A stretch of DNA of 64,000 bases, taken from Candidatus Doudnabacteria bacterium (GTDB lineage: Bacteria; Patescibacteriota; Doudnabacteria; UBA920; O2-02-FULL-48-8). The notes beneath the pieces are model-generated. The model had not been told where the DNA came from. It ran no database searches and worked only from the letters and a program-made list of their open reading frames with translations. The position numbers were made by a program, and so were the translations under genes. Every line of letters begins with the position of its first letter. The first letter of the stretch is position 1. The stretch covers positions 2,214 through 66,213 of the forward strand of contig JBDTSL010000001.1 of NCBI GenBank assembly GCA_039931165.1, read 5' to 3'. Positions 5,201 to 27,256 of this stretch are shown one piece after another.

Positions 5201-6877
5201 TCATTGAATTAGATCCGAAAACACCACCAGCCGTTGAGGATAACTGTTGGTGATTTTATTAAAATCGCCGATGCAGGTAATAAGAATAAGACGGTTACCT
5301 CCGTTTGAAACAAAAATATCCGAAGCATCCGCTTTTGCTTCGTAGAAACGGCGCTCTCTGACCTCAAATACAAAAGAAACTCCCCTGTCGTCTACCACCG
5401 ACATCGTTTGGCCTACAGTTACATTTTTCAGATTATCAAAAATCGCGGTCTGTCCGCCCGACCAAATCCCGCTATGGCCGTCTATAACGGCATTGCCCGG
5501 CTGGCCAGGTCGAGGGCCCAAATTAAACCATCCGACATGGGCGCGGCCCGCGGCTGTATCCATGGCTCCGGCCGCTGTCAAACCGACTTGCTCGATCGCG
5601 GCATTGACCCTGATGCTGGGAATTTTCAAAAAAGCCGGCAGTCCGCTGGGAATTGGTTTCGGCACAGGGATAGGTTTGGGGGTGGTTGTATTTGGAAGCG
5701 TCGGAGTTGGAATAGGTACCGGAGTGGGAACCGGAGCGATTGGGACCGGCACAATCGCTACGGGGTTACTGAGCGAAGGACTGGGCAGAACTGAGAGAGG
5801 TTGACCGCTAAAATAACTGTTAACCAGAAAGTACGCGAGCAGGCAGATCAGGGATCCGACAACAATAATCACCATCAGTGTTTTTTGTTTTCTTAACCCT
5901 GCCCACAGCGCAAGCAAGCCGGATATTGCCGCAAACGAGATTACAATTGCCCAATTCGTGGGATTGCTTGAACCGGGATCGGTTGCCACACCGGCCGTAA
6001 TATCAAAAAGATTTGGCGGAGTCGGCAACAGATCCGTGCTCGGAAAATCCGGAGCCCGGACCATGCCCGGCACAGCCACTATAACATTTATGGAAACTTT
6101 ATCCATCGCGGCCAGACCATTGGCGATCCCTTCGGCAGTAGCGATACTCTTCGCGTTTGCGGTAAGTTTAACTGAGCAGGTGTATATCCAAGACTCGCCG
6201 GCGTTAAGCAGTTTGTCGCTGTTGGCATCACCCGTTGGTCCTATTACGGACTGGCATTGATCGTCAGAAACGCTGATTCTGCCAATCGGGGCAATTCCCG
6301 GGTTCGAAACCTTATAAGTATACGTTACAAGTCCGCCGCCGAAGGGCAGGACAAACTGATCGGGTTGCGCTACAAGATGAATCAAAGGAGGAATTATGGG
6401 TTCGCTGACCACCACCGTGGCACTGGAGATGGCTGTCGCTGTCAGACCGACAGAATTGCCTGTGGCGGTGGCTGTATTGGTTGTGGTCCGGCCGATCTGA
6501 GTCGTACACCGGTATAACCAAATTTCGTTTGTATCGAGAATCAGATTAAGATTGGGGTCGCCGGAAACAAAACTTACCGAAGCGCATCTGTCGTCAGCAA
6601 CCTTTAAATTATGCACGCCGACTGTTCCGGCATTGGCAACCTTAAAAGTATAAGTGACCAATCCTGGACCTGCGGGCAAAGTCAGCGGGTTTGGCACTTC
6701 CGTAAGGGAAATCAGCGGAGGAATAGCGATAATACTGGCTTGATCCACAGTAGGGTTTGTTTGTATTTGCGCATTTGCGTACATGGCGCCGCACAACACG
6801 ACGAACAAAATCGGCAGGACCAAAAATGCGAACTTGGCAAAAATTCTTTTAGCACGCATGTTCTCGATATGTTTCAT
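5201..6877 (-). CDS. Fusion protein: signal peptide + two DUF11-like repeat domains + sorting-signal-like segment (FPSTD, TM, RKQK) + Pro-rich linker + C-terminal sortase domain
   Basis: The N-terminal 330 aa parallel the C-terminal halves of the adhesins at 7959-11169, with LTLPAGPGLVTYTFKV...VADDRC and LVTYTYKVSNPG repeats. The C-terminal ~190 aa carry the sortase catalytic triad: His in AVIDGH, Cys in LILITC, Arg in QRLVVF. They align with the neighbouring sortase at 6909-7859. Confidence 0.7.
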   Translation of the reverse strand: MKHIENMRAKRIFAKFAFLVLPILFVVLCGAMYANAQIQTNPTVDQASIIAIPPLISLTEVPNPLTLPAGPGLVTYTFKVANAGTVGVHNLKVADDRCASVSFVSGDPNLNLILDTNEIWLYRCTTQIGRTTTNTATATGNSVGLTATAISSATVVVSEPIIPPLIHLVAQPDQFVLPFGGGLVTYTYKVSNPGIAPIGRISVSDDQCQSVIGPTGDANSDKLLNAGESWIYTCSVKLTANAKSIATAEGIANGLAAMDKVSINVIVAVPGMVRAPDFPSTDLLPTPPNLFDITAGVATDPGSSNPTNWAIVISFAAISGLLALWAGLRKQKTLMVIIVVGSLICLLAYFLVNSYFSGQPLSVLPSPSLSNPVAIVPVPIAPVPTPVPIPTPTLPNTTTPKPIPVPKPIPSGLPAFLKIPSIRVNAAIEQVGLTAAGAMDTAAGRAHVGWFNLGPRPGQPGNAVIDGHSGIWSGGQTAIFDNLKNVTVGQTMSVVDDRGVSFVFEVRERRFYEAKADASDIFVSNGGNRLILITCIGDFNKITNSYPQRLVVFSDLIQ

Positions 6878-6908
6878 GGTGTATATTATTAATGATCAGC
6901 TTTATTGC

Positions 6909-7859
6909 TTACAAGACTATATAAGAGTTAAGTATTTTTCTCGTGGCCGGGCCGACATTGCCTAAAACATCAAGACCGTTATCCTTCTGAAATTCTCTGA
7001 CCGCGCTCTGCGTTTCGGTTTGGAAAGAATCGGAGAGCGGCGAATTGAGAGGAATATATCCCAAACATTTAAGAAGACTCTGAAGCAATACCACTTGGGA
7101 GCCGCTACTGCCGATTTTCAATGGACCGGTGAAAGATTCAGCCAGACCACAAGGCCCAGTTTCGTTGGCCGCGGCAGGAAGAGAATATAGCCCGGCCGGT
7201 ATTGGAGGTCCTTCCGCTACTGCCGGCGCCTCGGTCCGGACTCCCGCCACTTCCCCATCCACAAGATCCGCGAATACCACAAACCGTTTAGAGTAGGTTT
7301 TTTTCGATTTATCCCAGACCCCGGCGCAAGTAACAAGATTAAGATGCGCGCCGCTGTCAGACGAATAAACTTCCGGGACCTTGGCGTCAAAATCATAAAA
7401 TCTGGTCTCCCGCACCGCAAAAGGCACGGATTCTCCGTTTTCCGTCAGGATCTGCACCATATCTCCTTTGACCAGCTTATTTAGATTATAAAATACGGCC
7501 GCCTTCCCGTTGGTCCAATCCAAATGGCCTGCGATGACCGAACTGCCCTCCTGACCCGGTTTGGGTCCTTGATCATACCACCCGACATCCTCGGGGCGCT
7601 TAGGCACGTCCATTGCGCCGCCCGCTGTTTCACCCACATTCTCTATGGCGGCGTCGACATTTAAACTCGGGATCACTAAACGCAACGGCTGTCCGTAATC
7701 CGCGGGTTGGTCTTTTATGCCCGCCAGCACAGGAGCGCTGGCTATCTGTTTAGCCGGAGTTTTATCATAATCAAGAGCATACCGTAAAAACAGCAGGAGG
7801 CATATCGCGAATCCGGCCACTAGGATCACGGAGAATTGTTTGCTAAAAAATGTTTTCAT
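6909..7859 (-). CDS. Sortase (transpeptidase) with C-terminal peptidoglycan-binding domain
   Basis: N-terminal TM anchor, His in SVIAGH, Cys in LNLVTC, Arg in KRFVVF. The C-terminal ~60 aa (LQSLLKCLGY...FQTETQSAVREFQKDNGLDVLGNVGPATRKIL) look like a PG_binding_1-type domain. Confidence 0.75.
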   Translation of the reverse strand: MKTFFSKQFSVILVAGFAICLLLFLRYALDYDKTPAKQIASAPVLAGIKDQPADYGQPLRLVIPSLNVDAAIENVGETAGGAMDVPKRPEDVGWYDQGPKPGQEGSSVIAGHLDWTNGKAAVFYNLNKLVKGDMVQILTENGESVPFAVRETRFYDFDAKVPEVYSSDSGAHLNLVTCAGVWDKSKKTYSKRFVVFADLVDGEVAGVRTEAPAVAEGPPIPAGLYSLPAAANETGPCGLAESFTGPLKIGSSGSQVVLLQSLLKCLGYIPLNSPLSDSFQTETQSAVREFQKDNGLDVLGNVGPATRKILNSYIVL

Positions 7860-7958
7860 TCCGAGAAAATATCTTCAAGGACATTATATCAGAAAAGCCG
7901 GACAACCTGACCTAAGACAGGTTCATCCGGCAATTTGGACTTGCAGTGTCTAACTCTA

Positions 7959-9548
7959 CTATTTTCCCGCACGAATTCGCTTTCGGTCAAATTTTCTTCG
8001 GTAAATATAAAGCAGGAACAAAGCTCCGATTATTCCGACCGGAAAAATAATTTTCCATGGGGTGCTATGATCCGCGCTCAGCCCTGTACTTGGAAACGCA
8101 GGAACTTCTGTGGCCGGCAACGCAGGCGGCGCAACCACCACAGTAGCGAACGCAAGATCAGTGGCAGTTATGCCATTGGCCGTGCCGGAGGCTGTGGCAG
8201 TGTTCAGGGTCGTGGCAGTGAGATTTGAGATACAGGTAAAGCTCCAGCTCTCGGTCGGTTCGAGCAGATTGTTTTGATTGATATCTCCCGGGTGTCCTAC
8301 AACTCTACCGGGTAAGCCTGTGCATTTGTTATCAGTAACAGTTACATCACTTAAAGCCACGGTACCCGGGTTGGTGACGGTATATCTGTAAGTAACCGCT
8401 CCGCCGCCTGCCGGCAGTGTGAAAGGATAAGGGATCTTTACCACATGGATCAAAGGAGGAACGACGGCAGCGCCGACGACAACTGTTGCGGTGGCTGTGT
8501 CGGTAGAGCTTAGTCCCAGAGAGAATCCTGTGGCTGTGACGGTATTTGTATGAGTGGCGGCTAGGGTCGTGGCGCAGTTGTATATCCAGACTTCAGTCAG
8601 ATCCAGCGCGCCGTTGGCATTGGTATCGCCGGAGACAAAGTTTACCGGGCCACAGCTGTCATCGGTCACTCTGACAGTGGACATCGGGACAGTTCCGATG
8701 TTACGGACAGAGTAAGTGTAGGTCACGAGCCCGGGACCGCTGGGCAATGATAATGGGCTGGGTACTTTTAGGACATCGATCAGCGGTGGGACCGGGACCG
8801 GGCCTCCGGGGCCGGCGGGCGGTGTGCCTGATGAACATGAGTCAGAAATAGCATTAGTCTGCAACGTTACTTCACCAACCAAAGCTAAGGCGCGGCCAAT
8901 CAAACTTGCGCCGGTGGCTAATGTAATATCGCCAGAGTTTGTGATAATGGTTCCCTTGATCTGTGAGCCGGTACCGATGTTCATAGCTATCGGAACCTGC
9001 CAATATACATCGCAGGCGCTAGCTCCATTGGTTACCGCAACAGTAGTACCTCCGCTATCAGTGATACTGGACGTACTGCTGAAAATGTAGACGCCGGCGC
9101 CATCAAGAGTAATGGTGCCGCCGGTCATAACTCCCGCGGCTACATCATAAACTCCTGGGGTGATCGTTACATTCCCTGACAAAGTTTGGGCTGGTCCAGG
9201 CCCTTGAGCCGCAAGTTGCCCATACGCAGTAAGCGCATCGGCTTCGGGAGTATTCACTGTAGGAGCAACATCATATCCTGCCGCGATTCCCGGACCCGCT
9301 GTATCAGCGAATCCTACGTTCGAGCTATCAGACCCGACACGTCCCGAAAGTACCGATAAGCCTGTATTTGTCACCCCCGCTTTACCAAGAGCCGAATAGG
9401 CAGCAGACGCTCCGAGGGTTGGCGCTACGCCTGTAACGGCATAAACAGTAGTGCCTTTCATTACAAACATTCCAGCCACCAAGGTCACTAAAAGAAATCC
9501 AACAAATAACGTTTTATTGTATTTTTTTGTTGTTCGTTTTTTTATCAC
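7959..9548 (-). CDS. Sortase-substrate surface protein A: signal peptide + ice-binding-like (DUF3494-type) beta-helix + two DUF11 repeats + C-terminal sorting signal (LPATE/FPSTG, TM, RRKFDRKRIRAGK)
   Basis: The N-terminal region has Gly/Thr/Ser-rich beta-solenoid repeats. Its C-terminal 240 aa are near-identical to the paralog at 9568-11169. It ends in a hydrophobic helix plus a basic tail. Confidence 0.65.
   Translation of the reverse strand: MIKKRTTKKYNKTLFVGFLLVTLVAGMFVMKGTTVYAVTGVAPTLGASAAYSALGKAGVTNTGLSVLSGRVGSDSSNVGFADTAGPGIAAGYDVAPTVNTPEADALTAYGQLAAQGPGPAQTLSGNVTITPGVYDVAAGVMTGGTITLDGAGVYIFSSTSSITDSGGTTVAVTNGASACDVYWQVPIAMNIGTGSQIKGTIITNSGDITLATGASLIGRALALVGEVTLQTNAISDSCSSGTPPAGPGGPVPVPPLIDVLKVPSPLSLPSGPGLVTYTYSVRNIGTVPMSTVRVTDDSCGPVNFVSGDTNANGALDLTEVWIYNCATTLAATHTNTVTATGFSLGLSSTDTATATVVVGAAVVPPLIHVVKIPYPFTLPAGGGAVTYRYTVTNPGTVALSDVTVTDNKCTGLPGRVVGHPGDINQNNLLEPTESWSFTCISNLTATTLNTATASGTANGITATDLAFATVVVAPPALPATEVPAFPSTGLSADHSTPWKIIFPVGIIGALFLLYIYRRKFDRKRIRAGK
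8136..8832. repeat. About 700-bp near-identical segment shared with 9725-10421 (the DUF11-repeat halves of adhesins A and B), offset 1589 bp
   Basis: Long identical runs were read directly, for example ccaccacagtagcgaacgcaagatcagtggcagttatgccattggccgtgccggaggctgtggcagtg. There is one short divergent patch near 8715-8760 versus 10318-10360. Confidence 0.85.
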
Positions 9549-9567
9549 GAATCCCAGTTTTATTTTA

Positions 9568-11169
9568 TTAAAACGCTCGTTTTTTTCGGGCCACGTAGAA
9601 CAGCAATAAGGCCGCGATCATTCCCGCCGGAAGGATGACATTCCACAAAGTATTTCTTCCCGCTGGCGCATATCCGGTAGCTGCCAAACCGATGCCTGGA
9701 GGCGGAGTTGGTGTTGCCGGCGGCGCTACCACCACAGTAGCGAACGCAAGATCAGTGGCAGTTATGCCATTGGCCGTGCCGGAGGCTGTGGCAGTGTTCA
9801 GGGTCGTGGCAGTGAGATTTGAGATACAGGTAAAGCTCCAGCTCTCGGTCGGTTCGAGCAGATTGTTTTGATTGATATCTCCCGGGTGTCCTACAACTCT
9901 ACCGGGTAAGCCTGTGCATTTGTTATCAGTAACAGTTACATCACTTAAAGCCACGGTACCCGGGTTGGTGACGGTATATCTGTAAGTAACCGCTCCGCCG
10001 CCTGCCGGCAGTGTGAAAGGATAAGGGATCTTTACCACATGGATCAAAGGAGGAACGACGGCAGCGCCGACGACAACTGTTGCGGTGGCTGTGTCGGTAG
10101 AGCTTAGTCCCAGAGAGAATCCTGTGGCTGTGACGGTATTTGTATGAGTGGCGGCTAGGGTCGTGGCGCAGTTGTATATCCAGACTTCAGTCAGATCCAG
10201 CGCGCCGTTGGCATTGGTATCGCCGGAGACAAAGTTTACCGGGCCACAGCTGTCATCGGTCACTCTGACAGTGGACATCGGGACAGTTCCGATGTTACGG
10301 ACAGAGTAAGTGTAGGTCACAGATCCGGGACCACCAGGCAAAGACAAAGGGCTGGGTACTTTTAGGACATCGATCAGCGGTGGGACCGGGACCGGGCCGC
10401 CGGGGCCGGCGGGCGGTGTGCCTGCACATGTCACCGGTGTGGCTATATTGGTCGTATTCCCCGTTGTAACTACTCCGCCAAATGACAAGGCCCTTCCTGT
10501 CCAGTTTACGTTAGCACCAGTTGTAATGCCCGAATCATCAATAACTGTTCCTAACATAGTCGTATTGTCTGCGAGTGATGTTGCAGAAGTGGCAGTCCAA
10601 AAAACGTCACACGGAGATGCCCCGGCCACTTGCACAATCGCCCCTGCCGACGAGGTTAGGGCGCCAAAAATCCTGAATATATATGTTCCAGCTCCATTAA
10701 GCGTAATTGTGCCTGTTATCTGCGCAGCACTACCGGCTGTAGTGCAATAAATTCCGGGCAGATAAACTCCAATACCACCAGGGTGAAGGGCTTCAGTGCC
10801 CAGATTAACCGCTCCGGCTGGGAAAGTGTAATCGCAAGGCAATTGAGCATTCAAATTAACAAGTGCGCTGCCCTGATCTGTGCCTGCGGTAGAATATGGA
10901 GCACCCGAGCCGTAGCGCAGCTGTGTGCCTAGCGGGTGAACTGCCGGTCCTGTAGTAAATCCGATATCGCCGTTAACCGTGGTTCCGGCGAAGGTATTAA
11001 TGAAAGAACTGGCAAGAATGGCATATGATGTGGCCGCTCCAAGGTTCGGAGTTGTAGCCGCACGAGCCATAAGGCCATTCATCATAGAAATCCCGGCCAT
11101 AAGCAGAATAACCAACAGAGATATAACAATCCGGCCTTTGTATTTTTTTGCGTTTCGTTTTTTTATCAT
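9568..11169 (-). CDS. Sortase-substrate surface protein B: ice-binding-like (DUF3494) N-domain + two DUF11 repeats + LAATG sorting signal
   Basis: After the signal peptide the protein reads LGAATSYAILASSFINTFAGTTVNGDIGFTTGPAV, matching the DUF3494 family opening. The C-terminus is GIGLAATGYAPAGRNTLWNVILPAGMIAALLLFYVARKKRAF. LAXTG is the class-E sortase motif. Confidence 0.7.
   Translation of the reverse strand: MIKKRNAKKYKGRIVISLLVILLMAGISMMNGLMARAATTPNLGAATSYAILASSFINTFAGTTVNGDIGFTTGPAVHPLGTQLRYGSGAPYSTAGTDQGSALVNLNAQLPCDYTFPAGAVNLGTEALHPGGIGVYLPGIYCTTAGSAAQITGTITLNGAGTYIFRIFGALTSSAGAIVQVAGASPCDVFWTATSATSLADNTTMLGTVIDDSGITTGANVNWTGRALSFGGVVTTGNTTNIATPVTCAGTPPAGPGGPVPVPPLIDVLKVPSPLSLPGGPGSVTYTYSVRNIGTVPMSTVRVTDDSCGPVNFVSGDTNANGALDLTEVWIYNCATTLAATHTNTVTATGFSLGLSSTDTATATVVVGAAVVPPLIHVVKIPYPFTLPAGGGAVTYRYTVTNPGTVALSDVTVTDNKCTGLPGRVVGHPGDINQNNLLEPTESWSFTCISNLTATTLNTATASGTANGITATDLAFATVVVAPPATPTPPPGIGLAATGYAPAGRNTLWNVILPAGMIAALLLFYVARKKRAF
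9725..10421. repeat. Second copy of the ~700-bp intragenic repeat
   Basis: See the feature at 8136-8832. Confidence 0.85.
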
Positions 11170-11347
11170 AATCTTCCTGACTTTCGTTAGGCGGGTTAAT
11201 TATTTAGTTTATTTGTATTTCGAACCATGCGGTCTGTGAATCTAGCTTTTTTAGTGTCTTTTTTATGAAAATAGCTTCTGTACATATTATGATATGCTTT
11301 ATGGTAAATGTCAAAACTAACGCTGTGGATAACAGCTTATACCAAAA

Positions 11348-11374
11348 CCACCTGCTGATGCAGGTGGTTTTTTA
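11348..11374. terminator. Intrinsic terminator-like hairpin (ccacctgc-tgat-gcaggtgg) followed by T6
   Basis: Perfect 8-bp stem with a T-run on the plus strand and an A/T-rich run on the other side. Lies between adhesin genes B and C. Confidence 0.5.
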
Positions 11375-11383
11375 TGATTCGGT

Positions 11384-11490
11384 TTTTGCGAGCGACCGCT
11401 TTTGAAGCTTGAGATCTGGCGGGAGCGAATCAATCTCATCTTTAATTGAGATTGCTTCGTCGTCCCGATAAATCGGGACTTCTCGCAAAA
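11384..11490 (+). repeat. Family-1 structured intergenic element, copy a
   Basis: Outer inverted repeat TTTTGCGAG/CTCGCAAAA. Inside it, CGAATCAATCTCA pairs with TGAGATTGCTTCG, then a hairpin TCCCGAT-AAA-TCGGGA, then CTTCTCGCAAAA. Confidence 0.6.
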
Positions 11491-11502
11491 TTGAGAGAAA
11501 AT

Positions 11503-12645
11503 TTAAAGCGCTTTTTTTCTTCGGGCAATGTAGAGCAGGAACAAAACCGCGACTATGCCAATTGGCAGGATCACATTCCAGGGAGTCGCTTTTTGCGCCG
11601 GATTAAATCCTGTAGCTGCCAGCCCGAGGCCGGGTGGCGGAGTAACTGCTACTGGCACAGGAGTGACCACATTTGCCGTATTTACGATGGTGCAGCCGGT
11701 CGTAAGGCCTGCTACAACCGTGATCGAGCCGCAAGTGGATGAATTTTGAGTCCAGCCGGACGGCACTACTTCCGTGGCTGAATAAACTCCTGGGGTAAGA
11801 CCGCTTTGGGTATGTGATCCGGTTCCTGCCGAGGTTGAAATGCTGAAACTAGAGAAGCCGGCGCCGGTGGTGTTAAAGTTGAATGTGCCATTGCCTCCGA
11901 CCGCTGTTTTATTTACGGTAATTGATCCTGTGGCCGGAAGTCCAGAAGCGCATACCGGTGTGGTAATCGTATTGAGAGAGGTGGTGACGGTTCCGCCAAA
12001 TGCCAGGACTCTCCCTGTCCAAGTAGCGAGGTTGCCGAGTGTAATGCCCGAAGCATCGATGTCCCGGCCTACGAAGGCAGAGTTTGCTCCAAGCGTTGTG
12101 GCAGCGCCCGGGGTCCACCAGACATCACAAGAGGTCGCGCCATTGGAGGCCGTGACCACGGAATTGGCCACAGTGGTAAGCGCTCCGGTCATCCGGAAAA
12201 TGTATACGCCGGCGCCATTCAGAGTAATTCCGCCGGTTCCTACGTCAGCCGCGCCCAGAACGCAATATACTCCCGGTGTGTAAACGCCGACCGGACCGTG
12301 TGTGGTATCGGCAGCGAGGTCAATTGCCCCGGGTGCGAATGTAAACGTACACGGCTGGCTGTTCAGGGCAGACAAAGCCGCTCCCTGATCTATGCCGGCC
12401 TGGGCATAAGTAGCATCAGCCGTATGGGTGACGCCAGTGACTGTGGGCGCTACAGCAGGCCCGGTGGTATATCCCAGATCGCCGTTAATGACGGTCCCGA
12501 CCAAAGTGTTGGTATAGGAACCGGAAAGAACGGTAAAGCTGTTGGCCGTCCCAAGGCCCGGTGACGTTGCCGCGTTGGCTGTGACCCCAACCATAAGAAC
12601 AGCGGCCAATAAAATGATAGTGAACAGGATATTAATCTTTTTCAT
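11503..12645 (-). CDS. Sortase-substrate surface protein C: ice-binding-like (DUF3494) domain + Thr/Gly-rich Ig-like segment + LAATG sorting signal
   Basis: Reads LGTANSFTVLSGSYTNTLVGTVINGDLGYTTGPAV after the signal peptide. C-terminus is PGLGLAATGFNPAQKATPWNVILPIGIVAVLFLLYIARRKKAL. Confidence 0.7.
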   Translation of the reverse strand: MKKINILFTIILLAAVLMVGVTANAATSPGLGTANSFTVLSGSYTNTLVGTVINGDLGYTTGPAVAPTVTGVTHTADATYAQAGIDQGAALSALNSQPCTFTFAPGAIDLAADTTHGPVGVYTPGVYCVLGAADVGTGGITLNGAGVYIFRMTGALTTVANSVVTASNGATSCDVWWTPGAATTLGANSAFVGRDIDASGITLGNLATWTGRVLAFGGTVTTSLNTITTPVCASGLPATGSITVNKTAVGGNGTFNFNTTGAGFSSFSISTSAGTGSHTQSGLTPGVYSATEVVPSGWTQNSSTCGSITVVAGLTTGCTIVNTANVVTPVPVAVTPPPGLGLAATGFNPAQKATPWNVILPIGIVAVLFLLYIARRKKAL

Positions 12646-13787: not shown

Positions 13788-14966
13788 CTAATTAAATGAC
13801 TGGGAGTCAGTATTGAAGCCGCCGCCGGACGACATGCACCATCGGATATACTCGCTATTTTTCAGCTCCGCGCAATCCGCGCTGAGCTTTGCCGGATCAG
13901 TGGTCCAGCTTTTTATATTGCTGCCCAAATTCTTAAAGCAAGCCTCCTGAAAATTGCTGTTCAGCTGGGCGCAAAAATCTCCGATCTTATTTGTTTGGCC
14001 GACATAGCGTCCTGACAATCCGTCCACTACTCCCAATTGGCAAATTTGAACATAGTTCGCGCTTGGCATCAAACTGCAGGAATTTTCCATTTTCGCGTAA
14101 TCTTGGGTCGAGCCGACCTGATTGGTGCCGATGATATGAAAACATCCCTCCCTGTAAATTTCGGGAACCTTCATGCACAAATCTGCGTTCTTCTTCCAGT
14201 CATATTTGCTTAACTCGGCAAAATACGAACTTTGATACTGGTAGCAAATATTCAAATAGCGGGTTGCCAGAGCATCACAGGGATACATGGGATCGGATGC
14301 CTTCAGAAATTCGGTCGGATGAGCGGTATTGGTTGAGCTTGAAGAATTTTCCATAAAAACCCCGCCATAACAAATCGTTGGTTGATTGCCTTCCAGCTTG
14401 TCGCACAATGCCAACGACTTATTTAGATCCGTATCCGTGATAAACATCATAGCATGCCCTATGCCGTGGACGCATTCGGAATAAAACCTCGGGCTGGTAT
14501 AATCAGAAATTTTCCCGCATGCGGTTTGAAGCGCTTCCGTGATCTTGGGACTGTCCGGATCTGTCAGAGACAAGTGTTTGTCCCAAAAATACGATTCCAT
14601 GACGCCGTGATAAAACCCGCCCCAGCAAACCGGGTTGGCCCTGGAATATACTTTGGACACGCTCCCCTCCTGTTCATATGCCTTCCTGCCGATGTAATGG
14701 GTCAGTTCGTGACAGCGGCTGAATATTTCGGGATACTGTTCGTTGTCTTTCAAAAGCTGAAGAATTTTTACATAATCCCATTTCGCCATTAAAGTCCCTG
14801 CGACTTGCATGTAACAATTGTCGCTCAATTGCTTTTCCCCGCAGGGTCTCATCTGCGAGCGCAGAAACTGGGAATCGGAAATGGTTTGATTTGGATGCGA
14901 CAAAACAAAAAACATGCCTCCGGCAATAAGCAATATCCCGGTTATATAAATTAAATTCCTGTTCAT
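13788..14966 (-). CDS. Membrane-anchored cysteine-rich extracytoplasmic protein with HExxH motif (putative metallopeptidase-like; function unknown)
   Basis: N-terminal TM (LIYITGILLIAGGMFFVL), more than 20 Cys, CHELTHYIG (HExxH) and ECVHGIGHAMMF. Start placed at MNRNLIY (14966), which overlaps the NUDIX stop as ATGA. The track ORF extends to 15008. Confidence 0.45.
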   Translation of the reverse strand: MNRNLIYITGILLIAGGMFFVLSHPNQTISDSQFLRSQMRPCGEKQLSDNCYMQVAGTLMAKWDYVKILQLLKDNEQYPEIFSRCHELTHYIGRKAYEQEGSVSKVYSRANPVCWGGFYHGVMESYFWDKHLSLTDPDSPKITEALQTACGKISDYTSPRFYSECVHGIGHAMMFITDTDLNKSLALCDKLEGNQPTICYGGVFMENSSSSTNTAHPTEFLKASDPMYPCDALATRYLNICYQYQSSYFAELSKYDWKKNADLCMKVPEIYREGCFHIIGTNQVGSTQDYAKMENSCSLMPSANYVQICQLGVVDGLSGRYVGQTNKIGDFCAQLNSNFQEACFKNLGSNIKSWTTDPAKLSADCAELKNSEYIRWCMSSGGGFNTDSQSFN

Positions 14967-15370
14967 TGCTTGAATTTCTTGTAATTCTCGATCGGTTGAT
15001 GAAGCCAATCCGGAAAATCTACTTTTGGATTATTCAGATCAACCCATTTATATTCAGTGTGTTCTTCCGAAAGTTCAACACGGTCCGACTTTGGCTTACA
15101 AAGAAACATCAGCAGAGTGATTTGTTGTCCATCGTCGCGGGTAAAGTAGTGAACATCCAGGGGCATAACAACCTCAATATCCAAATTCGTTTCTTCTTTC
15201 GTCTCTCTTAGCAAACCGGTAAAAGGATTTTCGCCCGGCTCCAGCCTGCCGCCCGGAATATCCCAGGCTCCGGGCTTATGGACGTCGTTAGGCCGCCTTT
15301 TCAAAAGCAAAACTTTTTCGTCTTTGACAATAAAAGCTTTCGCTGCATTGCGAAAATTATTTTCTGGCAT
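14963..15370 (-). CDS. NUDIX hydrolase
   Basis: Nudix box GGRLEPGENPFTGLLRETKEETNL (GX5EX7REUXEEXGU). Confidence 0.85.
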   Translation of the reverse strand: MPENNFRNAAKAFIVKDEKVLLLKRRPNDVHKPGAWDIPGGRLEPGENPFTGLLRETKEETNLDIEVVMPLDVHYFTRDDGQQITLLMFLCKPKSDRVELSEEHTEYKWVDLNNPKVDFPDWLHQPIENYKKFKQ

Positions 15371-19505: not shown

Positions 19506-21119
19506 CTAGCTCCACCAATTCCAAATAATATTGATAGGCCGGCCGATCTTATTGCCCGTCGTTCTCGCCAGCTGAACCAAATTATGAGTTTGATCCAAAC
19601 CTAATGTCCAACCGATCCCAAGGTATGCAACGGACCCGATAAGTCCGGCTGATACTCCTTGAATTAAAACTCCCCAGTAAGTGTGCATATTGACCAGGGG
19701 GGCTATGAAATATAATGAAACGTAAGCCGTAGCGCCGCCTATCAAAGCCGCGATAATTATCTTCAAACAATTTAGAATCAGGTATTCATCCTGAATATCT
19801 CCCAATTTACGATGCAGAACTACTAATAAAAGAATGAGATTAAGGATATTGGTTGCTGAATACGCCAGAGCCATGCCGGCAATTCCGAATCTGCCGGTCA
19901 GATAATAAGTGATCAGAACATTCGAAGCAATGGTGATAAATCCGATGACTACGGGAATGATCGTATTCTGAATGGCAAAAAAAGCTCTTGTAAACAGTGG
20001 GATCAGCGCTTGGGCGAACAATGAAATGCAAAACAGACCCAGGGATTCGGCCACTATTTTAACATTGTCAAAAGTAAAATGCGTGCCCTGCCCGATGCCC
20101 AACACCAGCCTCACCACTTGAGCTCGCAGAACCAGCAGCAAAATCGACAGCGGGATAATAAAAAACAGGATCTGGATCGTGGTTTTGGCCAGTACGTCTT
20201 TAAACCCCTGCTGGTCTTTTTTGTTGAACAGATCCGACAGCAAAGGGAAGACGACGATGGCGAAAGATACCGCGAATATTCCGAGGAACACGGATTGCAG
20301 ATTATTGGCGTAATAAAAAGCGGCCAGAGCGCCGGTGCCCAGGAACGACCCGAACACGCTGACGATCAGCGATGTGACCTGTTCCGTGCCCATGGAAAAA
20401 ATCCTGGGCCAATACAGCTTCCAAAATTTCCTGAAACCCGAATCCGCGCTGACAATTTTAAACGAATAACGGAATCCCAGAGAAATAATCTGCGGAACCT
20501 GGATCGCAAAATGCAAAAACGCACCAAGCACAACTCCGATCGCCAGCCCGGCAGGACCGAAGCGCGGATAAAGCCAAAGTACTCCCGCGATGATCGACAA
20601 GTTGTATACCACGGGCGCCACCGCCACCAGCGCAAACCTTTTATAAGTATTAAGCATGCTGGAGACGATCGACGACAGTGTCAGGAAAATGGGCGAAAGC
20701 AGAAAAATTTTGGTGAACAGTTTGGTCAGGTCAAAAGCCTCCCCGCTGAATCCGGGAGCAATCGCGTGAACCAGCGGATTTATGAATATATACGCGATAA
20801 CGGTCAGCGTCAGCATAAGGATCAGGGTGACATTGATAATGCTGGAGGCCAGGCGATTGGCGTCTTTTTCGTCCCGGATCAGGTATTCGGAAAACACGGG
20901 AATAAACGCGACCGAAAAAGTTCCGAGGATCAATAAGTTATAAATAAAATCCGGAATGCGAAACGCGGCAAAGTAGGCGTCAATAGTCAGTCCGGCCCCG
21001 AATTGATGGGAGAAAACCGCATCGCGGACCAGGCCAAGGATCTTGGCCAACAATGAAAAGACCGCGATGGTCACTGTTGCTTTTCCTATTTTATTGTCGG
21101 ACAAAGATTTTACATTCAT
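19506..21119 (-). CDS. murJ: Lipid II flippase MurJ (MviN)
   Basis: 537 aa with 14 predicted TM helices. Start reads TVTIAVFSLLAKILGLVRDAVFSHQFGAGLTIDAYFAAFRIPDF, typical of MurJ. Confidence 0.85.
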   Translation of the reverse strand: MNVKSLSDNKIGKATVTIAVFSLLAKILGLVRDAVFSHQFGAGLTIDAYFAAFRIPDFIYNLLILGTFSVAFIPVFSEYLIRDEKDANRLASSIINVTLILMLTLTVIAYIFINPLVHAIAPGFSGEAFDLTKLFTKIFLLSPIFLTLSSIVSSMLNTYKRFALVAVAPVVYNLSIIAGVLWLYPRFGPAGLAIGVVLGAFLHFAIQVPQIISLGFRYSFKIVSADSGFRKFWKLYWPRIFSMGTEQVTSLIVSVFGSFLGTGALAAFYYANNLQSVFLGIFAVSFAIVVFPLLSDLFNKKDQQGFKDVLAKTTIQILFFIIPLSILLLVLRAQVVRLVLGIGQGTHFTFDNVKIVAESLGLFCISLFAQALIPLFTRAFFAIQNTIIPVVIGFITIASNVLITYYLTGRFGIAGMALAYSATNILNLILLLVVLHRKLGDIQDEYLILNCLKIIIAALIGGATAYVSLYFIAPLVNMHTYWGVLIQGVSAGLIGSVAYLGIGWTLGLDQTHNLVQLARTTGNKIGRPINIIWNWWS

Positions 21120-21122
21120 AAT

Positions 21123-23192
21123 TTACTTGGCAATCACCATTGGCCAAAAATCATCGGTATTGGTTTCTGATTGAAAGCCAACACCGCCAATAGTTTCCAC
21201 AACTCCCGGCCCTTGCCATTTGAGTTTGAACTGCCCAAGACTCAAGCTACCGGCAAAATGATAAGGCTTGGATCCCGATTGTTTCTGAACCAACAGGCTA
21301 TACGACTGGGTGTTGCCGAAAGCGCTCGATTTGATCTTGAACGGCAGAATATAGGAAATGGTTACGCTTTTGCTTTGTCCGACGTCGGTATTAAGCCAGC
21401 CCGCGAACTCGGTTTTGCCTGCTTCGATCCGCGCAAAGACATTTGAATTCAGCTCTCCAATATCCCAGTTAGCCAGGTCCTTATCCGTGCGCATGCCTTC
21501 TGCGGCTGAATCTAAATATTGATAATCATCAAACCCTGAAGCCGAAATAAATTGGCTGCCCAGCGGCACCAGAACGCGAAGATAATTTTTATTGTCAGCT
21601 TCGGCGGAATTTTTTCGGATAATGGTCAGGGTGTTTATGACAGAGCCGTCCGATAAAACCTTGCTCAGTAAGTTGGCATCCTGATCAATGCTCAGGTCGG
21701 TTTTAGTGCCGCCCAGATTGGAATTGTTGATGGACAAATAATCATAATCCGCGGGCAAGATCTGACCGGCAAAACCCAAATCCGCAATTCGGACTTGCGT
21801 GTCGTGATCTTTGCTGTAGAGCAGAATGCTTCTCTGTCGCAGATTGTCCTCGAAAATCTGGAACAGTTCGAACCATTGGTTCTTATTCATCGCGGACAGG
21901 CGGTCCAGAAGCTCGGGCGTAAAATCAGCCAGGAATTTTTTCGGCTGGTTTAAAGTTTTGTCATAGTCTATTGAAGTTTTAAACTGCGTTTCCTGCTGGA
22001 AATTTTCCGGGGTCAAAGTCACGCCGTATTGGTCCATTTCTACAGGCCCGGTCAAGCGCAGGATATCTTCAAACAGCTTCGGAGTGACGGAGATCACTCC
22101 GTCCGCGGTCTGGCTGCCCTTTTCAAAAAAATACAAAAGCTTTTGGGCCGTGGTCGGGAAATCCGCGAACCAATTCGCATCACGGATAGCCCAGCGCTTA
22201 ATTTCAGGCTGCATTGGCCCCGGGGCCGCTATCTGCTCGTAGATCTGCCCGTCAAGCTGGTATATGCTTTCAATTTTCAGCTTAGATATCGATCCTTGAT
22301 TGGTTTGTAAAACCCCATATGTTCCGATAAAGCCGCCGGTAGCTCGGGCTTCGTCGGAATTCTGGAAGATCAACAGATAGGTTTTTTGTCCGCTGAAAAG
22401 TCCGAGATATAAATTCTCCAGGCCCACCAGCTTGTCTAAGATCGAACCAAGTCCCGCGACTTCCTGTTTGGCCTTATCCAAAGTTTGTGAATAATCAAGA
22501 GGCAGGCTACCCGCAAGATTGAATTCTATCGAAGCCTCGGCAATCAAGCTGCGGCTGGAAGCCAGCAGTCCGCGGTTGGCTGTAAGCCTTTCGTTAAAAT
22601 TCTCGGTTTGCACTCCTAGACTTGACACTTTCAGCTCATCGAACAAGTTCAGCGCCGCGGTCAATTGTTTTCCGGCCTCTGCCAGGGCTGCGGCACCCGA
22701 AAGCATATGATCGGCGGAATTTGCCTGAGGGGCAATCCATTTGAGAACCGGAAAACTATTAAGTTTGCTTTGCGCAAGATTGATATTGGACGTGGCCGCG
22801 TCGAACAACTGGCCGGCAGCCGCAAAATTTTGCGAACCGATATTTTCTTGCGCCGTATGCAGGTCGGTATATGCCGAGGTCGCGTCTCCTAATATTTCGC
22901 CGGTTGCGTTGCGGACGGCAGACAAATAAATCATCCCTTGAAGCAACACGATCAAAATAATGCCGGTAAGCGCGAACGAGCCGATTTGGACCAAATGCCT
23001 GCGGTAATCGCGGAGTTGGGGTTTAAAAGATAAAAGCTGCGGAACTTCCGCAAAGTTCTGTCTGCTTCTGATAACCGCGTACATCAGCTCGGAGCTCATG
23101 ACCTCGCGCTTGATGACATTTTTGATCTTTAAGGGCTTGGCCTTCCGCCTGGCTGATCCGATGTCAATTTTAGAAAATCTTTTTGAGTTCAT
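21123..23192 (-). CDS. DUF4012-like membrane-anchored envelope protein
   Basis: 689 aa with an N-terminal TM and the central motif LLIFQNSDEARATGGFIGTYGVL, resembling the DUF4012 AELRxTGGFIG signature. Sits where murG would be in a canonical dcw cluster. Confidence 0.5.
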   Translation of the reverse strand: MNSKRFSKIDIGSARRKAKPLKIKNVIKREVMSSELMYAVIRSRQNFAEVPQLLSFKPQLRDYRRHLVQIGSFALTGIILIVLLQGMIYLSAVRNATGEILGDATSAYTDLHTAQENIGSQNFAAAGQLFDAATSNINLAQSKLNSFPVLKWIAPQANSADHMLSGAAALAEAGKQLTAALNLFDELKVSSLGVQTENFNERLTANRGLLASSRSLIAEASIEFNLAGSLPLDYSQTLDKAKQEVAGLGSILDKLVGLENLYLGLFSGQKTYLLIFQNSDEARATGGFIGTYGVLQTNQGSISKLKIESIYQLDGQIYEQIAAPGPMQPEIKRWAIRDANWFADFPTTAQKLLYFFEKGSQTADGVISVTPKLFEDILRLTGPVEMDQYGVTLTPENFQQETQFKTSIDYDKTLNQPKKFLADFTPELLDRLSAMNKNQWFELFQIFEDNLRQRSILLYSKDHDTQVRIADLGFAGQILPADYDYLSINNSNLGGTKTDLSIDQDANLLSKVLSDGSVINTLTIIRKNSAEADNKNYLRVLVPLGSQFISASGFDDYQYLDSAAEGMRTDKDLANWDIGELNSNVFARIEAGKTEFAGWLNTDVGQSKSVTISYILPFKIKSSAFGNTQSYSLLVQKQSGSKPYHFAGSLSLGQFKLKWQGPGVVETIGGVGFQSETNTDDFWPMVIAK

Positions 23193-23195
23193 GTG

Positions 23196-24311
23196 TTAAT
23201 TTGCCTCCAAATTCGTGAATCGGGAGATGTTCAGCAAGATCCCTACGGCTGCCAGACTTATCAGCAGAGATGATGAACCGTTGGAAATAAAGGTCAAAGG
23301 AATGCCGGTCAAAGGAATCAACCCGGCTATCCCGCCGATATTGATCAGAGCCTGAAGTATCAGCCAGCTTACTATTCCCGCGGCCGTAAGTTTGCCGAAC
23401 ACATCCGGAGCTTCCCGCGCAACTTTAAATCCCCGATACGCCAAAAACAAGAACAGCAGCAAGATCGCGGAAATTCTTAGAAACCCCAGTTCCTCGGCCA
23501 TGATCGCGAAGATCGAATCACCGATCGGCTCAGGCAGATAGCTGTATTTCTGAAGCGATTGGCCAAATCCCAGGCCCCAGAGCCCGCCGGACCCTATGCC
23601 GATCACAGCCTGATTAACCTGGTAGGCTATTCCCTGAGAATCCGCGGTCGGGTCCATAAAAGCCAAAAATCTATGAGCCCGGTAAGGCTCGGCTTTGACC
23701 AGGATCCATAAGACCAATAATGCTACTGCCGCGGTCGCATAAATATACTTCATCCGCACTCCGCCGATAAAAAACATTACCGCGGCGATGGAGGCCAGAA
23801 CCAGCATTGTGCCGATATCAGGCTCGAGGATGATCAAGCCGGCAACCAGACCTACGATAGCCAGGCTCGGCAGAAACCCGTAATACAAATTATCCGAGTG
23901 CTGCTGCCTTTTGTCGAACCAGCTGGCCAGATACAATATTACCGCCAGCTTCACAAACTCCGTCGGCTGGAATTGAAAAGAGCCCAAATTGATCCAGCGT
24001 CTGGCTCCGCCGATTTTTAATCCGATGCCTGGTATCAAGACCACAACCAGCAGGGCAATGCCGCCCAGGATCAGCAAAGGGGCGAATTTTTGCCATTTAT
24101 GATAATCAATCCTTGAAAAAAAATACATCAAGATCAGGCCGGGCACGGCGCCCAACAGAAGCTGTCTTGAAAAATAATAATAATTATTGTGAAAATTTTG
24201 GAAAGAAAGAACGGTCGAAGCAGAGGACAAAATCAAAAGACCCATGGCCAGCAGGATCAGCACCGGCCATAAAATATATGGATCGACTTTCGGCAAGGTT
24301 TGTTTTTTCAT
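23196..24311 (-). CDS. ftsW: SEDS-family peptidoglycan glycosyltransferase (FtsW/RodA)
   Basis: 371 aa with 10 TM helices and SEDS motifs. Adjacent to murD. Confidence 0.85.
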   Translation of the reverse strand: MKKQTLPKVDPYILWPVLILLAMGLLILSSASTVLSFQNFHNNYYYFSRQLLLGAVPGLILMYFFSRIDYHKWQKFAPLLILGGIALLVVVLIPGIGLKIGGARRWINLGSFQFQPTEFVKLAVILYLASWFDKRQQHSDNLYYGFLPSLAIVGLVAGLIILEPDIGTMLVLASIAAVMFFIGGVRMKYIYATAAVALLVLWILVKAEPYRAHRFLAFMDPTADSQGIAYQVNQAVIGIGSGGLWGLGFGQSLQKYSYLPEPIGDSIFAIMAEELGFLRISAILLLFLFLAYRGFKVAREAPDVFGKLTAAGIVSWLILQALINIGGIAGLIPLTGIPLTFISNGSSSLLISLAAVGILLNISRFTNLEAN

Positions 24312-24321
24312 GCGATTGTTC

Positions 24322-25548: not shown

Positions 25549-25625
25549 AATTTTTTTAAAGCACCTGCCCGGTAGTGAAATTCGATTTTAATACTGCCGA
25601 GCAGTATCGAATTTCTACTACCGGG

Positions 25626-27182: not shown

Positions 27183-27192
27183 AAGATCGTGC

Positions 27193-27256
27193 AGGTGTAA
27201 CGTATAGCCTGTAACGTTACAAGTTACAAGTTACGCGTTACACGATTAATTAGCGT
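27193..27256. repeat. Family-2-related GTAACG/CGTTAC palindromic repeat (abuts mraY stop)
   Basis: gtgtaacgtatagcctgtaacgttacaagttacaagttacgcgttacacgattaattagcg. Shares the CGTATAGC and TTAATTAGCG blocks with copy 1 and its flank. Confidence 0.4.

Follow-up and report, generated by a model that had tools for sequence, protein, structure and literature searches.

Five adjacent genes on the minus strand of a Candidatus Doudnabacteria contig (JBDTSL010000001.1) appear to constitute a sortase-dependent cell-surface display locus, a reading to which a probability of roughly 0.8 is assigned. According to the open reading frame (ORF) map, they fill positions 5201–12645 of the window, i.e., of the whole 64,000-nucleotide (nt) stretch that was analysed. 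A, B, and C encode secreted proteins, and D and E encode class-F-like sortases, E being a substrate–sortase fusion. The initial annotation, made from the letters of the DNA, had proposed sortase-dependent display of DUF3494-headed, immunoglobulin (Ig)-stalked proteins from five consecutive minus-strand genes of a minimal, episymbiont-type host. All five genes were recovered as ORFs, the organism is an ultra-small bacterium known as a metagenome-assembled genome of Candidatus Doudnabacteria, and profile hidden Markov models, catalytic triads, C-termini, the beta-helix fold, and related loci of the Candidate Phyla Radiation (CPR) agree with the proposal.

11503–12645, minus strand: gene A, 380 amino acids (aa); GenBank MEO8065238.1, "ice-binding family protein"
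9568–11169, minus strand: gene B, 533 aa; GenBank MEO8065237.1, "ice-binding family protein"
7959–9548, minus strand: gene C, 529 aa, GTG start
6909–7859, minus strand: gene D, 316 aa; identical to GenBank MEO8065235.1, "sortase", on a contig of 159,654 bp
5201–6877, minus strand: gene E, 558 aa; GenBank MEO8065234.1, "class F sortase"

The genes are thus already named individually in GenBank, and sortase-mediated display is a well-known class of mechanism. The exact translation of C was not found in the protein collection that holds A, B, D, and E, perhaps because GenBank uses a different start for this gene. Domain identities, folds, catalytic residues, signal anatomy, predicted topology, conservation of the gene cassette, the existence of the fusion and its repeated occurrence, and the lipid II genes were all established here by computation. 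The most unusual part of the locus is E, and the chief novelty is that substrate and sortase are naturally fused via a membrane hairpin, one case among several such fusions that recur; in the searchable literature no natural fusions of this kind were found, only engineered systems. New in degree are class-F-like sortases whose substrate family is evident, adjacent, and conserved throughout CPR, as well as the unusual LAATG/FPSTG motif pair with two sortases and the homogenisation of modular stalks. The literature search returned no paper in which DUF3494 is connected with sortases or with CPR bacteria, and for ice binding together with Patescibacteria it gave only papers that appear unrelated by their titles and abstracts. 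Sortases are frequent in CPR genomes (PMC6744442), and searches for them together with CPR, Patescibacteria, or Saccharibacteria yielded general mentions only.

Secreted proteins A, B, and C

The anatomy of the three proteins is listed below, together with the stretch of DNA that B and C share.

Protein A: signal peptide, residues 1–25; head, ~26–235; SpaA_4 module, 242–330; sorting signal, 342–380
11941–12570, minus strand: head domain of A, IBP-1 fold (PF11999, 3.4e-21)
11506–11622, minus strand: sorting signal of A, with LAATG at residue 342, a 10-residue spacer, helix WNVILPIGIVAVLFLLYIA, and tail RRKKAL
Protein B: signal peptide, residues 1–37; IBP-1 head, 38–245; CLIPPER_2/DUF7507 modules, 259–368 and 369–485; sorting signal, 495–533
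Protein C: signal peptide, residues 1–37; divergent IBP-1 head, 38–240; two CLIPPER_2 modules, 250–476; sorting signal, 485–529
9716–10424, minus strand: B copy of the stalk repeat (linker and both CLIPPER_2 modules)
8122–8830, minus strand: C copy of the stalk repeat, its edges being the head/stalk and stalk/anchor linkers

The N-termini of A, B, C, and E have a basic and then a hydrophobic stretch up to an AXA-type site (ANA↓A, ARA↓A, VYA↓V, and ANA↓Q, respectively). Regarding the heads, the Pfam search matches Ice_binding (PF11999) to A, B, and C with E-values of 3.4e-21, 3e-18, and 4.5e-31 and scores of 76.3, 66.7, and 108.6 bits (cut-off 28.7), covering about 200 of the 208 profile positions. 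The DUF3494 domain claimed for each secreted protein is therefore present above the gathering score in all three, and the domain E-values and conserved features of the locus are far beyond chance. The head of B also matches solved ice-binding proteins over its full length in sequence, the best being 6eio at 4e-8. In the AlphaFold2 model of B, built with 40 homologues (mean predicted local distance difference test, pLDDT, of 85.8), strands within residues 49–243 and a long helix at 92–108 exceed a pLDDT of 90 and form a right-handed beta-helix with an alpha-helix alongside; after the head come two beta-sandwich modules, then the motif region, which is disordered, and a helix at the C-terminus. 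The best 31 PDB matches reported by Foldseek for this model are all IBP-1 ice-binding proteins, led by 7bwy (TM-score 0.88, root-mean-square deviation 1.8 Å), so the structural check suggested for the N-terminal domain does give an IBP-1 beta-helix.

The heads are 53% (A/B), 46% (A/C), and 36% (B/C) identical. An opening motif, LG(A/T)A(T/N)S...TVNGD(I/L)G(F/Y)TTGPAV, had been ascribed to all three; it stands for A and B but fails for C, whose head is divergent (36% to B). On the NCBIfam equivalog IBP_CFB the three proteins score 19.9–43.6 against a cut-off of 400, which places the heads outside the characterised ice-binding subfamily. Homologues 65–77% identical to the A head occur in >100 cluster representatives of ~290-aa CPR proteins (1,103 matches among the scored candidates), and these are proteins composed of an ice-binding protein (IBP) domain and a sorting signal. 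Thaumarchaeal (Nitrosotalea) proteins P0245–P0249 and P0297 are 53–60% identical to the A head and carry a PEF-CTERM-like ending of the archaeosortase type (VPEFG, helix, R) rather than LPXTG; one head is thus combined with different anchoring systems in CPR bacteria and in archaea.

As for function, the heads are most plausibly adhesins, adhesion being favoured because the family is CPR-wide, surface-displayed, and very conserved. The opposite view, in which they genuinely bind ice or act as antifreeze and the locus is there for cold adaptation (by holding on to ice or inhibiting its recrystallisation) instead of cell adhesion, draws on the clear homology of the heads to proteins whose ice binding has been proven by experiment, on the fold that they share with these, and on surface-anchored DUF3494 proteins with Ig-like spacers in cold-adapted bacteria, e.g., SfIBP_1 of Shewanella frigidimarina (PDB 6bg8). 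However, 65–77% identical homologues of the head are found in >1000 CPR proteins, with record titles naming peat, summer lakes, groundwater, and activated-sludge-type samples, and the heads go together with a sortase cassette whose conservation extends over several CPR classes. It also counts against this view that DUF3494 is widespread in organisms that never meet ice. Ice binding is accordingly unlikely as the general role of the heads, and cold adaptation as the purpose of the locus is rated very improbable. SfIBP_1 and the Flavobacteriaceae protein IBPv (PDB 5uyt) share the head fold of B. In SfIBP_1 this head is reportedly combined with Ig-like domains and a cell-surface anchor. The proteins described here differ from these two in their sortase-signal anchor and in heads that belong to a very conserved CPR-wide family.

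The stalks of B, C, and E reach 48.8, 46.2, and 37.6 bits, respectively, with DUF7507 (PF24346, cut-off 27) in two stretches apiece, DUF11 (PF01345) falls slightly under its gathering score in all three, and TIGR01451 exceeds its own. DUF7507/CLIPPER_2 is therefore a better family for these stalks than DUF11. In A, the Pfam search gave no DUF11 or DUF7507 module; its stalk is one prealbumin/CnaB-like SpaA_4 module with a borderline score (27.4 bits, cut-off 27.3), in which K246, E292, and N322 within residues 242–330 follow the order expected of a CnaB-type triad, a consistency check only. The combination of DUF3494 with DUF11-type modules, initially annotated for all three proteins, can thus be kept for B and C (as DUF7507, with DUF11 sub-threshold) but not for A, which has the SpaA_4 module instead.

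DUF11 and DUF7507 have lately been renamed CLIPPER and CLIPPER_2, CnaA-like stalk domains of fibrillar adhesins; CLIPPER domains are described with a Lys-Asp-Asn intramolecular isopeptide bond, and DUF7507 is a predicted isopeptide domain (PMC12617251). Among 40 homologues, residues K270, N344, K380, D415, and N458 of B and its Cys pairs 308/334 and 418/448 are invariant, and a further Lys of module 2, K417, is almost so. The Asp of module 1 is D305/D306, in a "TDDSC" stretch present in both B and C. These triads and Cys pairs suggest that the stalks of B and C are reinforced by isopeptide and disulfide bonds. CLIPPER/CLIPPER_2 fibrillar adhesins (PMC12617251) share with these proteins the signal peptide, the N-terminal head, tandem CnaA-like modules with Lys/Asp/Asn, and the sorting domain. 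Unlike them, the proteins of the present locus have very short stalks of one or two modules and an IBP-1 beta-helix head, belong to CPR hosts, and are paired gene by gene with a class F sortase, and the modules of E have no Lys. At the DNA level, the stalk repeats of B and C mismatch at only 13 of 709 nt, with an identical run of 593 nt, and the heads and anchors on their flanks show no relatedness. The stalk thus looks as if it was recently duplicated or gene-converted, the heads and the sorting signals (LAATG vs FPSTG) having been kept distinct.

Sorting signals consisting of a motif, a hydrophobic helix, and a basic tail lie at the extreme C-terminus of A, B, and C, as the initial annotation had it. 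It also read the motifs correctly: LAATG in A and B, LPATE/FPSTG in C, and FPSTD in the sortase-fused E. In B, LAATG at residue 495 is followed by the helix and the tail RKKRAF; in C, FPSTG at 485 is preceded by LPATE at 477 and followed by the helix and the tail RRKFDRKRIRAGK. Among the 119 best homologues of the A head, 106 have the helix and basic tail, 69 have LPNTG, and only 4 have LA[NSA][TS]G, so LAATG is a rare variant in a mostly LPNTG family. A also contains an internal canonical LPATG (residues 236–240, window 11938–11952) exactly at the head/stalk junction (VCASGLPATGSITVNK), with no hydrophobic helix after it; it may be due to chance or may be a site for release or transfer of the head. 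A different ending is found in the IBP/CLIPPER proteins P0063, P0064, P0078, P0108, L016:11584–14451, and L019:522–2078, where PG_binding_1 replaces the sorting signal; members of this family may thus also be bound to the wall non-covalently instead of being anchored by a sortase.

Class-F-like sortases and the cassette across CPR

The Sortase profile (PF04203) matches D at 2.9e-23 (82.4 bits) and E at 3.9e-19 (69.1 bits), with a cut-off of 26.6. The His, Cys (TLxTC-type), and Arg residues are invariant in an alignment of 17 sequences (columns H68/C134/R148) and correspond to H112/C178/R192 in D and H468/C535/R549 in E. Both catalytic domains are thus as first annotated, and so is the peptidoglycan-binding domain attributed to one of the sortases, which belongs to D.

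Protein D: N-terminal membrane anchor, residues 11–29; catalytic domain, 51–200; C-terminal PG_binding_1 domain, 252–310
6930–7106, minus strand: PG_binding_1 domain of D (PF01471, 5.7e-14; 52.5 bits, cut-off 23; match to PDB 5tv7)

The model of the E sortase domain (residues 411–558) has a pLDDT of ~90, and Foldseek aligns it with class A sortases (SrtA of S. pyogenes and S. aureus) at TM-scores of 0.67–0.69. According to NCBIfam, class F (NF033748) is the best class for both enzymes, with 133.9 bits for D and 94.6 for E against a cut-off of 166. Class E was considered and rejected, as NF033747 gives 31.8 (D) and 15.9 (E) bits against a cut-off of 160. Of the link to class E drawn initially, the motif survives, LAATG being a class E motif, but the enzymes do not belong to this class. 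D and E are best described as class-F-like sortases by their profile scores, which lie below the NCBIfam class F cut-off; CPR homologues at 40–57% identity carry the class F name at NCBI.

Class F sortases (Cutibacterium/Propionibacterium acnes SrtF; NF033748, IPR042001) share with D and E the His/Cys/Arg triad and the N-terminal membrane anchor. The sole characterised class F enzyme, from P. acnes, prefers LPXTG (PMC8225981), and what class F sortases do physiologically is said to "remain unknown" (PMC13251363). D and E differ from the class F model in their scores (133.9 and 94.6 vs 166) and in the motifs found beside them, LAATG and FPST[GD] rather than LPXTG; unlike in known class F systems, D is fused to PG_binding_1, E to a cargo-like module, and the cognate substrate is an adjacent gene. 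The class E systems with LAXTG substrates (Streptomyces coelicolor SrtE1/SrtE2 and chaplins, PMC8225981) resemble A and B in LAATG, with Ala at position 2. In contrast to those systems, the enzymes here are not of class E, and LAxTG is rare in a mostly LPNTG family. PG_binding_1 is joined to class-F sortases on either side in relatives: N-terminally in P0197, P0199, and L017, and C-terminally in L019 and L033.

Several sortases related to those of the locus have further additions. The second-clade sortases of Saccharibacteria-type genomes (L019:5820–6893, L021:4664–5575, and L033:11396–12589) have a C-terminal hydrophobic helix besides the N-terminal anchor, and in L033 LPNTG stands right before this helix, as if the sortase itself were a sortase substrate. 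In P0124, P0128, P0136, and P0140, close relatives of D (46–58% identity), the anchor is preceded by a conserved N-terminal domain of ~190 aa without Pfam annotation, apparently cytoplasmic and helical.

The initial annotation had called for a comparison with sortase–substrate loci of Saccharibacteria and Actinobacteria. The genome scan, with one genome per species and an alignment of 6 sortase sequences, produced 80 loci from Peribacteria, Saccharimonadia, Paceibacteria, Microgenomates, Doudnabacteria, and others, with nine from Chloroflexota. All ORFs of these loci were translated and searched with the domains of the window, and those with enough upstream sequence were counted. An IBP and/or CLIPPER gene stands immediately upstream on the same strand in 46 of the 73 CPR-type class-F sortase ORFs (median gap 25 nt; 17 pairs overlap), and in 0 of the 8 from Chloroflexota. 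The order "IBP-like substrate, then class-F sortase" is therefore a conserved cassette. The upstream proteins mostly end in LPNTG, a helix, and a basic tail, and most CPR loci have a single sortase with a single headed substrate. A second sortase clade follows CLIPPER-only substrates of ~320 aa with [LF]P[DEK][TA]G (L019, L021, L033, L060, P0422, and P0440). This arrangement suggests, as far as motifs and gene order can tell, that a given sortase acts on the motif carried by the protein encoded next to it.

The presence of two sortases at one locus also recalls SpaA-type Gram-positive pili (class C plus housekeeping sortase), in which similar substrates with isopeptide-type Ig modules lie beside two sortase genes. 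In a pilus, one sortase would link either the CLIPPER-only module of E or the B and C stalks into a head-to-tail chain, D with its peptidoglycan-binding domain would anchor this polymer, and the IBP heads would be tip adhesins. The substrates do consist of CnaA/CnaB-like isopeptide-type modules, as in Gram-positive pilins, a "shaft-like" module-only protein lies beside "tip-like" headed ones, and module 2 of B offers the nearly invariant extra Lys, K417. The class C score is, however, only 18.7 bits for D and 20.6 for E against an NCBIfam cut-off of 160, so no class C sortase is present, and a YPKN-type pilin motif was not noticed, though no systematic search for one was made. Moreover, the one sortase per headed substrate in most CPR loci fits simple anchoring, and the CPR-specific pili described so far use donor-strand exchange instead of sortases (bioRxiv 10.64898/2026.03.03.709456). 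A sortase-polymerised pilus is therefore considered very improbable.

The fused gene E and the proposed display pathway

From its N-terminus, E is composed of a signal peptide, two CLIPPER_2 modules, the FPSTD linker, a helix, a basic loop, a second helix, a Pro-rich linker, and the sortase.

6062–6733, minus strand: two CLIPPER_2 modules, residues 49–160 and 161–272
6032–6046, minus strand: FPSTD, residues 278–282, in a disordered linker 24 residues ahead of the first membrane helix
5810–5959, minus strand: membrane hairpin of helix 307–327, loop LRKQKTL, and helix 332–356, from hydropathy and AlphaFold2
5648–5809, minus strand: Pro-rich linker of 54 residues, 357–410
5204–5647, minus strand: class-F-like catalytic domain, residues 411–558, with H468, C535, and R549
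5873–5886, minus strand: fusion junction, a run of six A (A6, 5881–5886) and then CAC TGATG (TGATG at 5873–5877)

The AlphaFold2 model of E has a pLDDT of 78.2 overall and >90 in the modules and the sortase. In the modules, Glu and Ala stand in place of the isopeptide Lys, and Ser in place of the second Asn. The first helix with the basic loop resembles the ending of a normal sorting signal, and the second helix starts at Met and equals a normal sortase anchor. The junction reads AGA AAA CAA AAA ACA CTG ATG GTG; with one A fewer in the A6 run, the first frame would end in ...KQKH followed by a TGA overlapping ATG, i.e., there would be two genes. In unfused relatives the stop and start overlap by 4 nt (L019) and 1 nt (L033), both at poly-A-rich junctions. 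Since the deletion of one A restores such an overlap, E is concluded to descend from two genes that the change of a single base joined in frame, one for a CLIPPER-only substrate and, behind it, one for a sortase. The helix of a sorting signal runs from outside to inside, with its basic tail inside, and complements the sortase signal-anchor, which runs from inside to outside; their fusion therefore gives a helical hairpin, with which the cargo-like modules and the catalytic domain are both predicted to stay outside the cell.

The same junction raises the question of whether the fusion is an artefact or a very recent pseudogene-like accident, caused by a one-base error or mutation in the A6 run. 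The removal of one A at 5881–5886 restores the TGATG stop/ATG overlap as in unfused L019 and L033, and the junctions of relatives are rich in poly-A, both of which suit this explanation. Against it, the 558-aa product is found in GenBank and in the independent Logan assembly of a separate run, SRR26386588. The Logan contigs L002 (SRR26386588) and L001 (SRR26386599) are 100% identical to the window, L002 over 2,700 nt with the junction spanned. An 855-aa ORF of L016, from another Patescibacteria genome, is only 43% identical to E and yet keeps its architecture, being colinear through modules, motif position, helix, basic loop (RKKKKKK), helix, and sortase; the two are sisters in the neighbour-joining tree. 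More hairpin fusions occur in other sortase clades, on up to 11 contigs, and the fused product of E follows the positive-inside rule. An accident of either kind is thus hardly probable; in particular, assembly error was judged unlikely given the identical Logan contigs and the orthologous fusions. Programmed frameshifting at the A6 run, which would give fused and separate products, was also considered and set aside, as no canonical X XXY YYZ heptamer lies in frame.

The fusion is not confined to E and L016. An exhaustive HMMER search with residues 301–558 of E reported 9,998 relatives at E ≤ 1e-3, and about 10 of the best 150 cluster representatives are substrate–sortase fusions. Three of these are of the hairpin type (P0422, P0440, and P0435), and others are of a direct type, in which the motif is followed after 12–45 residues by the sortase with no membrane helix between them (P0394, P0455, P0470, P0474, P0486, P0499, and P0507). 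Further fusions are P0009, P0010, P0012, P0016, and P0101, and a high-GC family of 958 aa with LPNTS, helix, RRRR, helix, and sortase is present on 11 contigs. P0009 and P0010 are solitary: up to 6 kb away there is no separate sortase gene.

According to the proposed pathway, A, B, and C would be exported by Sec, with the signal peptide cleaved at the AXA site, and kept in the membrane by the C-terminal sorting signal (LAATG or FPSTG, helix, basic tail). A class-F-like sortase, D or E, would then cut the Thr-Gly bond after the motif Thr, form a thioester on its catalytic Cys, and hand the protein to an amine of lipid II or peptidoglycan. As a result, the heads would be covalently displayed on the wall on short reinforced stalks, and D would be held at the wall by its PG_binding_1 domain. 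Genes of the lipid II machinery (MurJ, FtsW, a Mur ligase, and MraY) lie in the window too, and therefore lipid II, the usual sortase acceptor, should be made. As for the pairing of motif and sortase, motif similarity pairs C (FPSTG) with E (FPSTD), and gene order pairs C with D. Cleavage, wall attachment, sortase–motif pairing, isopeptide bonds, and adhesive function are inferred. For E itself two outcomes are conceivable: it may be cut by itself or by D at FPST↓D, so that a fragment of two modules becomes anchored, or it may keep its N-terminal modules as a permanent extracellular appendage.

Several points weigh against this pathway, or against the part of E in it. Both sortases score under the NCBIfam class F cut-off, and the characterised class F enzyme prefers LPXTG, but A and B carry LAATG, a type of signal that is rare in the A-head family (about 4 of 106). 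Cleavage, enzymatic activity, and wall linkage are only predicted, and so, given the peptidoglycan of CPR bacteria, is the wall acceptor. The motif of E ends in Asp rather than Gly and is 24 residues from the helix, compared with 10 in A and B, and the closest fused relatives have FPNTA (L016, where E has FPSTD) and FPHFA (P0435) at this position, which looks like decay. With the isopeptide Lys lost from its modules, the N-terminal part of E may no longer be cargo.

The last points lead to a rival reading of E, in which FPSTD is a relic that is never cleaved and the protein is a two-helix sortase with a permanent Ig-like appendage, which might serve as a spacer or else as a platform where the stalks of A, B, and C dock. 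The Asp at the end of the motif and its unusual distance from the helix, FPNTA and FPHFA in the closest fused relatives, and the replacement in both modules of a Lys that is invariant in true substrates, along with one Asn, all argue for it. On the other hand, xP[PS]TD with a helix and an Arg-rich tail recurs as an apparently genuine sorting signal in the CLIPPER proteins P0004, P0017, P0018, P0096, and P0102, and the IBP protein of L027 carries LPKTD. In addition, the hairpin fusions P0422 and P0440 retain the canonical FPETG and FPDTG, and L016 has an extra LPSTG just ahead of its helix. The relic reading is thus a serious contender, with a chance only somewhat short of even.

The display reading can also be taken further, to natural "self-sorting" proteins, in which CPR cargo, motif, and class-F sortase repeatedly come together in one polypeptide; this is a tentative idea that may well prove wrong. 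One form would be the membrane hairpin (E, L016, P0422, P0435, and P0440), the other a motif followed by the enzyme with no membrane segment (P0010, P0012, P0486, and others). If the motif is cleaved, each fusion molecule brings its own enzyme and attaches its cargo to the cell's own wall, and the secreted fusions without a helix might conceivably target another surface, e.g., the host cell wall. Cassette and fusions would then be the first physiological substrates of class F sortases and a CPR-wide attachment device. The nearest relatives in design are engineered self-cleaving fusions (sortase-LPXTG-target, BISOP, PMC2901362), which also have motif and sortase in one polypeptide, so that self-processing is possible in principle. 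In such laboratory constructs the sortase is N-terminal to the motif, whereas the natural order is cargo, motif, sortase, and E has its motif and its enzyme separated by a two-helix membrane hairpin.

For the display locus as a whole, the results give class F sortases an obvious natural substrate and describe a beta-helical head family that is sortase-anchored and 65–77% identical across CPR classes. Apart from type IV pili and the Pam pili, which were described recently, little is known of the means by which CPR/Patescibacteria attach to hosts. The locus and the 46 related cassettes supply concrete candidates for surface adhesins, which can be tested in cultivable, genetically tractable Saccharibacteria. 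The recurrent fusions indicate that a sorting signal and a sortase anchor can merge into a membrane hairpin with the topology unbroken; they raise the idea of self-processing surface proteins and may inspire compact self-ligating tags for protein engineering.

Surroundings of the locus

The gaps between genes are 19 nt (B–C), 99 nt (C–D), and 31 nt (D–E). Two weak signals were recorded in the region between A and B by the consensus scan.

11344–11371, bidirectional: terminator-like palindrome between A and B, with a 12-bp stem and A- and T-runs on its flanks
11286–11314, minus strand: sigma-70-like promoter match 5' of B (TTGACA-17-CATAAT, 11/12), a weak consensus match

On this weak evidence, A may be transcribed separately and B-C-D-E may form an operon; in the scan of the window, the totals of promoter and terminator matches are no higher than in shuffles (12 vs 10.4 and 12 vs 10.1, respectively). 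The Rfam and tRNA scans gave no match within 5201–12645 and only three tRNAs elsewhere in the window. The locus was said to lie upstream of the ATP synthase operon, which is correct: an AtpI-like gene and the ATP synthase genes come directly after it.

The cell-wall synthesis cluster occupies positions 19506–28296 (minus strand) and consists of MurJ, a 689-aa DUF4012 protein, FtsW, the Mur ligase, a 518-aa amidohydrolase, and MraY; two of these genes, those for the DUF4012 protein and the amidohydrolase, are odd inserts for such a cluster. A Cys-rich ORF of 406 aa at 13788–15008 (minus strand) has an N-terminal hydrophobic segment and no Pfam match at E ≤ 1e-5. Domains of a TrwB/VirD4-type type IV secretion coupling protein are found in an 844-aa protein at 37184–39718 (minus strand). 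A 763-aa ORF at 47111–49402 (minus strand) is a fused Zwf-Gnd, with the N- and C-terminal domains of glucose-6-phosphate dehydrogenase plus the 6-phosphogluconate dehydrogenase domains. Finally, two tandem membrane glycosyltransferases of the PMT_2 type (dolichyl-phosphate-mannose-protein mannosyltransferase-like) at 54878–58041 (plus strand) lie near a GT2 gene (52734–54389), and together they are possible genes for the modification of surface proteins or glycans.

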